DNA from: Candidatus Krumholzibacteriota bacterium
GTDB lineage: Bacteria > Krumholzibacteriota > Krumholzibacteriia > JAJRXK01
Length of the DNA stretch: 64,000 bases
Assembly (NCBI GenBank): GCA_963727455.1
Contig: CAVSGG010000005.1
Coordinates: 66,081 to 130,080 of the forward strand
Direction: 5' to 3'
Shown: in pieces, positions 43,253 to 46,701 of the stretch
Numbering within the stretch: position 1 is the stretch's first letter
How the letters are laid out: each line of letters opens with the position of its first letter
Program-made: the position numbers and the translations under genes
Notes under the pieces: generated by a model
Told to the model about the DNA's origin: nothing
The model's input: only the letters and a program-made list of their open reading frames with translations
Databases searched by the model: none

Positions 43253-44641
43253 TCACTTCCATACCTTCCCAAAGAAATTTTGGATCTCCGGCACCCCGCC
43301 CTGGAACACGAGGTAGCCGTCGTGCGGTTCGCGTTCGGTCATTTCGCCGGCCAGGGGCGTCTTCATGAGTTCTTTGACTTTCTCCGGGTCGTTGGGGTGC
43401 ATCCCCAAAGCCCAGCCCAGCTTGATGTAGGCGACCTCGGGCAGCATGTTTGCCAGGGGCACCACGCCCAACTCCAGAATCTCGCGACCCGTCTCGTAGA
43501 CGTGCATCTGCACGAAGCCCCACAGGGTCTGCAAGGTCATGAACACGCACACTCCCGCCTCGCGAGCTTTGCGCAGTGCGGGATAGACTCCCCGGTTGAC
43601 GTGCCCCAGGCCGGTTCCGGCGATCACGATTCCCTTGTAACCACAATCGATGAGCGATTCCAGAATATCGGGCTGCATGTTGGGATAGTAATAGACCAGG
43701 CTGACTTTCTCCTGGAAGGTCGCGTGCACTTCCGCCTCGCCGTTCTCGCGGCGATGTTGGTAGTCCTCCTTGAGCGGCGTGATGAGCCCGTCTTCCACCA
43801 TGGCCAGGGGAATGTCTCCGATGGTGCGGAAGGTGCTGCGATAGCTGCTGTGCATCTTGCGCACCCGCGTGCCGCGGTGCAGAAGATTGTAGCGGTCGCT
43901 GGTGGGCCCGAACATGCAGACCATCACCTCGGCGATGTCGCCGGTGGCTGCGGCCCAAGTTGCATTGATGAGATTCTGCGCCGCATCGGAGGAAGGTCGA
44001 TCGCTCGAGCGCTGGCTGCCCACCATGACGATGGGCACTGGCGGCGACTGCACCATGAACGACAGCGCCGCCGCGGTATGGTGCATGGTGTCGGTACCGT
44101 GGCCGATCACTACGCCCGCATATCCGTCTCGGATCGCCTCGCCGGTGCGCTCCGCCAGCACAAGATACTGCTCGGGACCCATGTTCTCGCTGAACACGCC
44201 AAAAAGTTTCTCGGTCTCCAGATTGCAGATGTCCGCCAGCTCGGGAACCGATCCATAGAGTTCCCCGGGCGAGAAAGCGGGGATGACGGCGCCGGTGCGG
44301 TAGTCCAGGCGGGAGGCGATGGTTCCCCCGGTACCGAAGAGTTTCACGCGCGGCTTGTTCTCACTGACGGGAAATTCCTTTTCGGGAATTTGATAGTGCG
44401 CTTCACGGTACCCAATCTGCTCTAGCTTCTCGATGGTGTCGTGCCGCAGTCCGATGTTGTAGCCGGTATTGAGCTTCAGCACGATGTGCTCGGCGTCGGC
44501 AGTTTCGCTGCGGGGCAGAAGCAGGCCCTCGAAGCTACCGGTTTTCGTGGTGGCGCGCACCTCGCACCACACGCCCACTCCGAACTTCTTCATGAGCCCC
44601 TTGCAGGGATCGCGGTAGCCCTTGAAGCGCTCCTCGTTCAT
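43253..44641 (-). CDS. gatD: Glu-tRNA(Gln) amidotransferase subunit D (archaeal GatDE type)
   Basis: GatD-specific N-terminal domain (FEGLLLPRSETADAEHIVLKLNTGYNIGL) followed by an asparaginase-like core, LFGTGGTIAS and GHGTDTMHHTAAALSF. The ATG overlaps the gatE stop by 4 nt (ATGA). Confidence 0.8.
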   Translation of the reverse strand: MNEERFKGYRDPCKGLMKKFGVGVWCEVRATTKTGSFEGLLLPRSETADAEHIVLKLNTGYNIGLRHDTIEKLEQIGYREAHYQIPEKEFPVSENKPRVKLFGTGGTIASRLDYRTGAVIPAFSPGELYGSVPELADICNLETEKLFGVFSENMGPEQYLVLAERTGEAIRDGYAGVVIGHGTDTMHHTAAALSFMVQSPPVPIVMVGSQRSSDRPSSDAAQNLINATWAAATGDIAEVMVCMFGPTSDRYNLLHRGTRVRKMHSSYRSTFRTIGDIPLAMVEDGLITPLKEDYQHRRENGEAEVHATFQEKVSLVYYYPNMQPDILESLIDCGYKGIVIAGTGLGHVNRGVYPALRKAREAGVCVFMTLQTLWGFVQMHVYETGREILELGVVPLANMLPEVAYIKLGWALGMHPNDPEKVKELMKTPLAGEMTEREPHDGYLVFQGGVPEIQNFFGKVWK

Positions 44642-46701
44642 CGCGATTCTCCCAGCAGTAGGGGGCGCAGGCGCTGCAGCAGGTCTTGGGGATCCAGTTT
44701 CCCCAAATACTTTGGCATGATCTCTCCCATGGCCCAGCGCAGGCGCGCATCGGGATCATCCTCACGCAAGCTAGCGGCTTTTGCCTCGAGCTGCCGCAGA
44801 AGCTCGGTCAGCGGCGGCTCGCTTCCGTTGCCAGATTCAAATGTGTGCAGGATTTCGTCGGCTCCGCGCTGCGGTTCGCACAGCAATCGGTCGAAAGTGG
44901 CCTCCGTCGCCTCGAGCCGCACGCGTCCGGAGCTGAGTGCCTCGACCCAGGGCGTGAGCCTGGATACCGTCGGCAGTTCGTCAATCCCGCCGCTACGGCG
45001 ATGATGGGGGATTCTCTTTTCCAGTGCATAGGCCACGCGTCGCGCGACTTCGCCTTCTCCTGGATGCAGAGCGTCGAAGAGCTCGCACCAGGGCGCGTCG
45101 CTGAGGCGGCGACACAGTGCGAAGGGCAAGCCCAGCTTTGCAAAGCGCGCTTCCTTCTCCCAGGGACGCTCTGTGCTGAGAGCGCTGACGCGCTCGATCA
45201 AGCCATCCCCCAAGGGCACCGGTGGGGTGTCGGTATCGGGATACATACGGTCGGCCCCGGGCAGGATGCGCTCGAAGCCGTTCGTGCCGCCGACGAAGGC
45301 CTGGCGCGTCTCGGCCGGCACCCCGACCAGGCAATCTTGCGCCCGCAAGAAGACCTCCTGTACCGCGGTCTGCAGATCGCGCTTCTTTCCCCACAATACG
45401 AGGATCGCGTCGCCCGACTCCGCGCGCAGCGCAGTGCGCAGTTGCTTCCAGTGCGCGTGTTCGAAGCCGTAGCCCTCGATGTCGCTGTGGATGAGGAAGG
45501 GCCGCGAGGTGAGGCAGGCAATCACGCGCACCCGGTCGGCGAATTCGTTGGCCAGGGTGAGACCGGGTTGAGTGCGACGTCCGAGCAGGCCACCAAATCC
45601 CTGGAGGCGTACCGCGACCGCTTCCTCGTCCCGCTCGAGGCAGTCGCGCAGGGGAGTGAAGTCGCTGGACGAGAGAATTCCGGTCGCGTCCAGCACCTTC
45701 GCTGAATCGTAAACGTCGTCGCTGCTCTCGGACAGGGCGAACATCTCGTGTGTTACCCCGCGCCGCAGGAGTTCGGCCCGTACTCGAAGCAAATTGAGCT
45801 GCCGATAGGCTTCGATGTGTACGAGTTGGGGAAGACCGCGGTGATAGTGCACGCCCTTGATCTCCACGCGCCTTCCGCCGGCCACCGAGACGTTCACGTC
45901 CTGCCGTGCCGCACCCGCCCCCCGGCGTACGCGGCCACTGGCGCGCGTGGTGCGTGCGAGCAAACGAGCGCCCGCCTGCAACTCGAGGGGGGAGTACAGT
46001 TCGGGCTCGGTCACGACTTCGGTCAGGGGCACCCCGAGCCGGTCGGTGCGGAAGGTGACGCGGTGTCCGATGTCGCTGATTTCGCGACAGGAATCCTCTT
46101 CGAGCGAGAGCTGTCGAATGTGCAGCTCACGTTCGATCTCGAGCTGTGGCTCGACGAAGGGAATCGCGCCGCCCAGTCCCACCATCGCCGTGCGTTGAAA
46201 ACCGGTGGGAATGGAACCGTCGAGGTACTGCTTACGCATCACGTGCAATTCGGAGACGAGATTCAAATCGAAGAGCCGGCTCACTTCCAGGGCGATCTCG
46301 ACCGCCTCGAGGTTGATCGGAAAGGGAGGGGTGTCGTCGATTTCGTAGGTGCAGACAGTGCCGCGCTCCAATTGGTAGACGATCTCCTTGCGCGTTTTGA
46401 ATTCCATGAGCGCGCAGCCGTCATACTCTCCTAGTTCACTCAGGGTAGGGCGCATGTGCCGTAACACTTCGGCGTCGAAGTGGTCCACGAACACACCGGA
46501 GGGGCAGCGGCAGAAGAGCTTCTTCTTCGTGTCGAGCTGTTGATGAACCTCGAGGCCGGAGAGGAATCCCAGCTCCCGGTAATCGGCCTCGCTCAACCCG
46601 CCGAAGTCGCGATCGGGGAAATCGAGGACCGCCTCGGCGCGCGGATTGACGTCGCTGGGCGGCTTCAGATTGGGTTGGTTGATGTCGCGCTCTGAGGCCA
46701 A
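44638..46701 (-). CDS. gatE: Glu-tRNA(Gln) amidotransferase subunit E (archaeal GatDE type)
   Basis: [45 protein letters not shown]...VEIKGV and a large AspRS-like insertion ahead of [13 protein letters not shown]. The length (687 aa) fits GatE, not GatB. TTG start after an AGGAG. Confidence 0.8.
   Translation of the reverse strand: [687 protein letters not shown]

Follow-up and report, generated by a model that had tools for sequence, protein, structure and literature searches.

A gene pair, gatE and gatD, encoding the two subunits of the amidotransferase GatDE was identified in a stretch of 64 000 nucleotides (hereafter the window) from a metagenome-assembled genome (MAG) of a Candidatus Krumholzibacteriota bacterium (GenBank assembly GCA_963727455.1, contig CAVSGG010000005.1; G000:C5:66081-130080). 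The pair is intact, under strong purifying selection and native to this bacterial genome. Reviews of 2008 (PMC2330236) and 2022 describe GatDE as restricted to archaea, in agreement with the first-pass annotation of this DNA, which had taken it for an archaeal signature, and a literature search found no paper describing a bacterial GatDE. The enzyme is not confined to archaea: its host here belongs to Krumholzibacteriota, and at least 590 bacterial loci were among the matches listed. New here are a GatDE host with glutaminyl-tRNA synthetase (GlnRS), asparaginyl-tRNA synthetase (AsnRS), four AsnB-type asparagine synthetases and no GatCAB, and an association of GatDE with GlnRS in three lineages. 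Judging from the sequence, we consider the odds somewhat better than even that the pair provides an auxiliary Glu-tRNA(Gln) amidotransferase route that took the place of GatCAB.

Identification of gatE and gatD

The two open reading frames (ORFs) lie on the minus strand, overlapping and at the positions given by the first-pass annotation. The gene gatE (44638..46701, TTG start) encodes the kinase/amidotransferase subunit of 687 amino acids, assigned by GatE profiles and alignments with archaeal structures, and gatD (43253..44641, ATG start) the glutaminase/asparaginase subunit of 462 amino acids, assigned by TIGR02153 and Pfam domains. The gatE stop and gatD start share a 4-nt ATGA overlap (44638..44641, minus strand; junction GAATCGCGATGAACGAG), by which the two genes are translationally coupled. 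All motifs that had been named were found, namely GLEVHQQ (residue 49), SLEEDS (199) and RMYPDTD (485) in GatE, and TGGTIAS (104) and HGTDTM (181) in GatD. The claim that these are a true GatE and GatD also held against curated equivalog cut-offs, structure alignments and a structural model, as detailed below.

GatD scored 499 bits against TIGR02153 (cut-off 324), passed a second GatD profile too and contained the Pfam domains GatD_N (PF18195), Asparaginase (PF00710) and Asparaginase_C (PF17763). It aligned over its full length with the archaeal structures 1ZQ1_A (E 2.9e-116) and 2D6F_A (E 5.7e-111). The type I asparaginase core is complete in its Thr nucleophile and Thr-Lys-Asp triad, with the nucleophile motif TGGTIAS, HGTDTM and the Lys of RKMHSS (261) all retained.

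GatE scored 468 bits against NF003107 (cut-off 456; profile positions 3-620 of 630) and 415 bits against TIGR00134 (cut-off 319.6). On GatB profiles, whose cut-offs are at least 315 bits, it reached at most 112 bits. The two ORFs are not of the bacterial GatB/AnsA type. Full-length alignments were obtained with the GatE proteins of Pyrococcus abyssi (1ZQ1_C, E 1.4e-87) and Methanothermobacter thermautotrophicus (2D6F_C, E 1.1e-86). Residues H53, E201 and E228 correspond to the Mg2+ ligands His15, Glu157 and Glu184 given for M. thermautotrophicus GatE in the 2008 review (PMC2330236), and are invariant across 28 aligned bacterial GatE sequences. The insertion resembling aspartyl-tRNA synthetase (AspRS), a feature not found in GatB, is present: the insert aligns to 1ZQ1 and 2D6F, and the 277-position Pfam model GatB_N stretches over GatE residues 49-499, indicating a large insert. 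In an AlphaFold2 model of GatE (predicted local distance difference test (pLDDT) 72, predicted template modelling score 0.70) the insertion domain matched the bacterial AspRS chains 1eqr and 1c0a over approximately 190 columns, and the top structure matches of the whole model were 2d6f_D (6.5e-25) and 1zq1_C (5e-24), with GatB chains ranking after them. The C-terminal YqeY-like tail domain is also present, the 1ZQ1 alignment reaching residue 624 and the tail being helical in the model (pLDDT 83-95, approximately residues 500-687); its sequence similarity is weak, and the Pfam scan did not detect GatB_Yqey in GatE. An N-terminal extension of approximately 38 amino acids lies ahead of the conserved core and is kept in G003, an assembly from the same genus.

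Cysteines C64, C66, C117, C205 and C396 of GatE, which include those of an LFCRCP motif, are likewise invariant in the 28 bacterial sequences; the corresponding sequence is LFCPC in M. thermautotrophicus, and P. abyssi lacks a counterpart. They may constitute a metal site. The stretch around the conserved cysteines (residues 47-126) is the lowest-confidence part of the model.

Related loci were collected by scanning a single genome for each prokaryotic species, and the best 80 of at least 590 matches were looked at more closely. Wherever the contig permits, gatE is followed by gatD in these 80 loci, and the two genes also occur naturally fused. Loss of the gatE stop codon in G003 leaves a single in-frame ORF of 1221 amino acids that comprises full GatE and GatD (L021:1174-4839), and the representative protein P0002 (943 amino acids) is a GatE without the tail fused to GatD. 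The conserved order and the fusions indicate that the pairing is obligate, and GatD and GatE are encoded as a pair that is predicted to form one enzyme. An open frame of 1172 amino acids in G010:C361 is another candidate GatE-GatD fusion.

The host genome and its gatDE locus

The MAG is 3.46 Mb in size and 88.9% complete, with an estimated contamination of 6.7%; two same-genus assemblies used for comparison, G001 and G003, are 96% and 93% complete. The host's glutamyl-tRNA synthetase (GluRS) is 89-93% identical to the GluRS of Candidatus Krumholzibacteriota MAGs. The description of the surroundings as bacterial stood: gene neighbours in the window (a DinB-type polymerase, a hemerythrin, a 4HBT thioesterase, and FG-GAP and FlgD-Ig proteins) are ordinary bacterial ones, GluRS is of the bacterial type and the tRNAs carry an encoded CCA. 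So did the statement that the base composition of the pair resembles that of the host, as G+C content, G+C content at third codon positions and codon usage all match.

A chimeric join, against which the first-pass annotation had cautioned, is contradicted by collinearity of the locus in two independent same-genus assemblies. An 894-kb contig of G001 is collinear with window positions 33001-38133 and 43255-53231 at approximately 80% nucleotide identity, and G004 is collinear across the locus, in agreement with G001. Because a chimeric join would not recur across three independent assemblies, a chimera is excluded, and this synteny together with the host-like composition also rules out contamination. 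In G001 merely 25 bp separate the two collinear blocks. The intervening 5.1 kb of the window (38134..43254, no strand assigned) are missing there and constitute the sole departure from collinearity; this block sits exactly at the 3' end of gatD, outside the enzyme, and has a lower G+C content (0.557 vs 0.615 for the genome). It carries genes for an FG-GAP/ASPIC protein and a protein with a FlgD-Ig domain, plus a lipoprotein-like ORF without a family.

Compared with G003, the ratio of nonsynonymous to synonymous substitution rates (dN/dS) was 0.019 for gatD (dS 0.61) and 0.129 for gatE (dS approximately 0.6); against more distant copies, values for gatDE were 0.13-0.35. A plasmid or phage vehicle was considered and none was found: the plasmid search gave a Natrinema megaplasmid only, and there were zero phage matches.

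Distribution and gene neighbourhoods

The idea of a lineage-specific feature, raised by the first-pass annotation, did not survive the scan, since the pair falls in one large bacterial clade. The best 80 loci are all bacterial and include Krumholzibacteriota, Eisenbacteria, Gemmatimonadota, Myxococcota, Acidobacteriota, Ignavibacteria and Melioribacteraceae, and further Calditrichota, Cloacimonetes, KSB1, Aminicenantes and Phycisphaerae. GatD is 66-81% identical to the GatD of other bacterial phyla (loci L022-L101), a conservation that is unusual and suggests either very strong constraint or a fairly recent spread of the pair between phyla. For the same genome pairs, identities of other proteins were 43-72% (GatE), approximately 61-65% (GlnRS) and approximately 38-42% (GluRS).

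Among the best 80 loci, six from Gemmatimonadales have gatE, gatD and glnS in this order on the same strand, with a divergent gltX upstream in five, and in a Myxococcota locus glnS adjoins gatE. The gltX beside gatDE in G041 encodes the only GluRS of that genome. Neither aspS nor asnS stands beside gatDE in any of the 80. Joint transfer of glnS with gatDE as a module was rejected: in a GlnRS tree the sequences of GatE-positive genomes were unclustered (12 changes vs a shuffled mean of 14) and grouped by phylum. As GlnRS was not co-transferred, the gatDE-glnS clusters must have formed locally, which points to functional coupling to tRNA(Gln) metabolism rather than hitch-hiking.

Phylogeny of the two subunits

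An exhaustive search of 1.84 billion representatives returned 460 at E ≤1e-30. Phylogenetic analysis of GatD (77 rows; IQ-TREE, LG+C20 with posterior mean site frequencies; four asparaginases as root) gave a bacterial clade with support of 100/100, and bacteria together with an Asgard-type group at 100/98; spurious rows (L046, L058 and L206) were removed from a FastTree run. The Asgard-type group includes Candidatus Wukongarchaeum, Candidatus Sigynarchaeum, a Promethearchaeota MAG and five further representatives; P0005 in this group is 86-87% identical to the GatDs of Sigynarchaeum and Promethearchaeota. Support along the deeper branches is weak. When all archaeal rows were constrained to be monophyletic, 48 log-likelihood units were lost, with p = 0.06 in the approximately unbiased test for a group that was chosen after the tree had been seen. 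The GatE tree (42 rows) had GatB, on a very long branch, as its root and gave an identical unrooted order of bacteria, Asgard and other archaea; here the archaea are monophyletic (86/86) and the root falls on the side of the bacteria.

The subunit phylogeny that had been proposed as a check thus agreed between the two trees in placing the bacterial clade beside Asgard and differed in the rooting. That bacterial GatDE shares its closest ancestry with Asgard-archaeal GatDE is solid. A transfer from archaea to bacteria, as the first-pass annotation had suggested, is favoured by the GatD tree, but the GatE tree is rooted the opposite way and the topology test did not reject the alternative. GatD is 52% and GatE 43% identical to the Wukongarchaeum proteins. 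The order gatE-gatD is found in Sigynarchaeum, Promethearchaeota and bacteria, and gatD-gatE in Methanobacteriales and Methanococcales. In three Asgard genomes there was one GatD each and no GlnRS was found, from which it follows that GatDE would be the primary Glu-tRNA(Gln) amidotransferase in these genomes. Sheppard and Soll are said to have proposed that GatDE is older than the split between archaea and bacteria; the position of the bacterial clade beside Asgard bears on whether GatDE was present in the last universal common ancestor or was transferred later.

The rest of the pathway and co-occurrence

The host genome was searched for gatCAB, glnS and asnS, as had been advised, and contained the latter two and not the first. 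In the profile search of the genome no GatB was found, the best match to the GatB model being GatE itself (82 bits, cut-off 314.8), and no GatA, for which the best match was an amidase of 177 bits (cut-off 481). This match, a 600-amino-acid ORF (C3:173870-174763), is a GatA-like amidase-family protein and not GatA. GatB is missing from same-genus G001 and G003 too. GlnRS (773 bits), AsnRS (463 bits), a single bacterial-type GluRS gene (538 bits) and four genes for AsnB-type asparagine synthetases are present; asnA was not found in the host genome.

Co-occurrence was counted in 183 genomes of three lineages, the window's class (41), Gemmatimonadota (81) and the class Ignavibacteria (61); these counts are descriptive and not tests, as related genomes are not independent. 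For the three lineages pooled, GlnRS was present in 46/49 GatE-positive vs 58/134 GatE-negative genomes, and GatB was absent from 20/49 vs 15/134. GatE was found in 30 of the 41 genomes of the window's class, with GlnRS in 29 of these 30 and in 5 of the 11 GatE-negative genomes; all 12 GatB-less genomes have GatE and GlnRS, and each of the 41 keeps at least one amidotransferase of GatB or GatE type. Six of the 81 Gemmatimonadota genomes have GatE, five of them with GlnRS, and the sixth GatE locus ends at a contig edge exactly where glnS follows in its relatives; here GatE occurs in 5/17 GatB-less vs 1/64 GatB-positive genomes. Ten Gemmatimonadota genomes have GlnRS and no amidotransferase at all, so that retention of one amidotransferase by every genome, complete in the window's class, is no general rule. 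In the Ignavibacteria class 13 of 61 genomes have GatE, 12 of them with GlnRS and the exception with GatCAB, and GlnRS is present in 20 of 48 GatE-negative genomes. Three further GatE-positive genomes, in keeping with these counts, were from Myxococcota and Aminicenantes, with GlnRS, and from Phycisphaerales, without GlnRS and with GatCAB. GatDE is commoner where GatCAB is missing. A requirement of GatDE for the synthesis of Asn-tRNA(Asn) or asparagine was rejected: every one of the 46 genomes checked (41 of the window's class and 5 of other phyla) has AsnRS, and the host has four AsnB genes besides.

Proposed role

Conserved catalytic residues and the archaeal structures suggest that GatE would bind a mischarged tRNA and phosphorylate the side-chain carboxylate of the attached amino acid, and that GatD would hydrolyse glutamine or asparagine and hand the ammonia to GatE for the amidation. 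The likeliest substrate would be Glu-tRNA(Gln), its conversion to Gln-tRNA(Gln) being inferred from the conserved active sites, the glnS and gltX neighbourhoods and the Asgard relatives, and the enzyme would act as an auxiliary or fidelity route beside GlnRS. GatDE is proposed to have replaced GatCAB in this lineage because GatE is present in all 12 GatB-less genomes of the class and because of the pooled excess of GatB-less genomes among GatE-positive ones.

Several observations weigh against this proposal. Given GlnRS, AsnRS and four AsnB, GatDE is redundant on paper. A sole route would imply a host without GlnRS and with a non-discriminating GluRS; this host has GlnRS, and its only GluRS carries Arg at the column of Thermus thermophilus Arg358, the discriminating type, so that a bulk supply of Glu-tRNA(Gln) would not be expected in the host. 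GatDE was the sole route to Gln-tRNA(Gln) in 0/52 GatE-positive genomes, which is unexpected for a fully competent Glu-tRNA(Gln) amidotransferase. Archaeal GatDE recognises A1-U72 of tRNA(Gln) (PMC2330236), and tRNA(Gln) of the host has U1-A72 instead; the enzyme would have to read this bacterial tRNA rather than the archaeal one. Finally, as the MAG is 88.9% complete, the absence of gatCAB leans partly on G001 and G003.

The assignment of the GluRS type follows from T. thermophilus, where the change of Arg358 to Gln alone made the discriminating enzyme non-discriminating (PMC2978374), and has internal controls among the relatives. Those without GlnRS and with a single GluRS have Ser at this column (G013, G018 and G023), and GlnRS-less ones with two GluRS (G022, G026 and G039) have one Arg-type and one non-Arg copy. 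Most relatives with GatE, GatB and GlnRS have an Arg-type GluRS plus one with N, H or D. Eight of the 12 GatB-less genomes of the window's class were examined, and seven of the eight have only Arg-type GluRS, as a single copy in G000 (the host), G001, G003, G008, G015 and G025 and as two copies in G024. The remaining one, G038, has GatDE as its only amidotransferase and an extra Lys-type GluRS resembling the non-discriminating GluRS2 of Thermotoga maritima. Examples from Gemmatimonadales, Ignavibacteria and Aminicenantes were Arg-type. In G005 (window's family, 93% complete) no GlnRS was found, and a single orthologous Arg-type GluRS is combined with GatCAB; the argument from a discriminating GluRS is weakened by this combination. 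The host GluRS is thus predicted, not securely, to be discriminating. That GatDE clears up after a non-discriminating GluRS is weakened as an explanation: the Arg-type GluRS counts against it, and G005 and G038 point the other way.

Two side observations concern the GluRS copies. In G024 the second copy is back to Arg. High redundancy is common in the window's class: genomes G012, G014, G017, G019, G027, G029, G034 and G037 (L268-L283) have GlnRS, GatCAB, GatDE and two GluRS, one an Arg-type copy and the other bearing N, H or D at the Arg358 position.

In the host, U1-A72 and a D-loop of 7 nt are common to tRNA(Asn) and both tRNA(Gln) genes, the latter also having A73, and tRNA(Glu) and tRNA(Asp) have G1-C72 and D-loops of 9-10 nt. 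The D-loop antideterminant logic of amidotransferases (PMC2330236) would apply here, because tRNA(Gln), with its 7-nt D-loop and without G1-C72, differs in both features from tRNA(Glu). On host contig C3 (44861-56431) glnS and gltX lie approximately 8 kb apart in a crossed arrangement, with tRNA-Glu(CUC) divergent and upstream of glnS (C3:45308-46882) and tRNA-Gln(CUG) approximately 120 bp downstream of gltX (C3:55016-56431).

Alternative explanations

Bacterial GatDE could instead be an Asp-tRNA(Asn) or dual Asp/Glu amidotransferase that does the job of GatCAB together with a non-discriminating AspRS, which we regard as improbable. It would explain why all genomes of the window's class keep an amidotransferase despite universal AsnRS and common GlnRS, and why G006 and G033, which have GatB, GlnRS and an Arg-type GluRS and no GatE, seem to need one apart from Glu-tRNA(Gln). 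An amidotransferase reading the U1-A72 pair and 7-nt D-loop shared by host tRNA(Asn) and tRNA(Gln) could accept both, and Bdellovibrio, Thermus and Deinococcus retain GatCAB beside both AsnRS and GlnRS (PMC4206432). Archaeal GatDE, however, rejects Asp-tRNA(Asn), its insertion being modelled to clash with AspRS (PMC2330236), and this insertion is present here. The neighbourhoods among the best 80 loci tie gatDE to glnS and gltX and never to aspS or asnS, AsnRS in every genome checked and four AsnB-type genes in the host do not force such a role, and the ten Gemmatimonadota genomes manage with GlnRS and no amidotransferase. It is less improbable, yet still unlikely, that bacterial GatDE now serves another purpose connected with GlnRS. 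Such a function could be a condition-specific route, for instance under glutamine starvation with asparagine donating the amide, the amidation of some other acyl-tRNA, or a tRNA-dependent amidation outside translation. The strong association with GlnRS in three independent lineages, the host GluRS predicted to be discriminating, the fact that GatDE is never the sole route and the roughly equal use of Asn and Gln as amide donors by M. thermautotrophicus GatDE (PMC2330236) all fit such a shift; the canonical catalytic and tRNA-binding domains are nevertheless all retained, the closest archaeal relatives appear to be primary Glu-tRNA(Gln) amidotransferases and no neighbouring gene hints at an alternative substrate. 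A bolder reading, which we regard as rather unlikely, is that bacterial GatDE does not substitute for the archaeal enzyme and instead has its own task in association with GlnRS (policing of rare Glu-tRNA(Gln) mischarging, a conditional route with Asn as donor or a new acyl-tRNA substrate), as it is found almost only where GlnRS is present and GluRS is of the discriminating type. If true, this, together with the unrooted Asgard link, would reopen the question of whether GatDE arose before archaea and bacteria diverged or came to bacteria from Asgard-like archaea.

Redundancy beside GlnRS and AsnRS might also mark the pair as a functionless leftover of an earlier transfer, either decaying or neutral. 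We consider this very improbable in view of dN/dS values of 0.02-0.13 within the genus (and the higher ones against distant copies), intact frames, invariant catalytic residues and the presence of the pair in 30 of 41 genomes of the class. The estimated contamination of the MAG would be the reason to suspect an assembly chimera or archaeal contamination; with the locus and both flanks collinear in G001 and G004, a host-like composition and nearest homologues that are all bacterial among the matches listed, the chance of this is negligible.

Significance and comparison with known systems

The supposed absence of GatDE from bacteria underlies accounts of Gln-tRNA(Gln) formation and of the evolution of tRNA(Gln) identity. 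A large bacterial clade under selection, with U1-A72 tRNA, coexistence with GlnRS and a tendency to displace GatCAB, alters this picture and offers a testable case of apparent redundancy in aminoacyl-tRNA synthesis. For annotation, a GatDE match in a bin should not be taken any more as a sign of archaeal DNA or of a missing GlnRS.

The host pair resembles archaeal GatDE, represented by 2D6F (M. thermautotrophicus, with tRNA(Gln)) and 1ZQ1 (P. abyssi), in its two subunits and their domain architecture, with a GatE cradle, AspRS-like insertion and tail and a GatD N-domain and type I asparaginase core, and in the conserved Mg2+ ligands and Thr/Thr-Lys-Asp residues. Identity to these structures is only approximately 30-35% (GatE) and 40-45% (GatD), and the setting differs: the host is bacterial, with GlnRS, a GluRS of the discriminating type and U1-A72 in tRNA(Gln), and has gatE-gatD with a 4-nt overlap rather than the gatD-gatE of Methanobacteriales and Methanococcales. 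Asgard GatDE is the nearest relative in both trees and shares the order gatE-gatD, with both genes on the same strand, in Sigynarchaeum and the Promethearchaeota MAG, whereas there a single GatD without GlnRS would make it the primary route, and the bacterial sequences form their own fully supported clade. Bacterial GatCAB carries out the same chemistry, with GatB a paralogue of GatE. It differs in using the glutaminase GatA with GatC in place of the unrelated asparaginase-type GatD, in a GatB without the AspRS-like insertion, and in being dual-specific and often the sole route, which bacterial GatDE was in none of the 52 genomes. A parallel in circumstance is the seemingly redundant amidotransferase beside GlnRS and AsnRS in Thermus, Deinococcus and Bdellovibrio (PMC4206432); in the same paper that enzyme is GatCAB, tied to Asn-tRNA(Asn) through an AspRS that accepts tRNA(Asn), whereas the Krumholzibacteriota host has GatDE and four AsnB-type genes.

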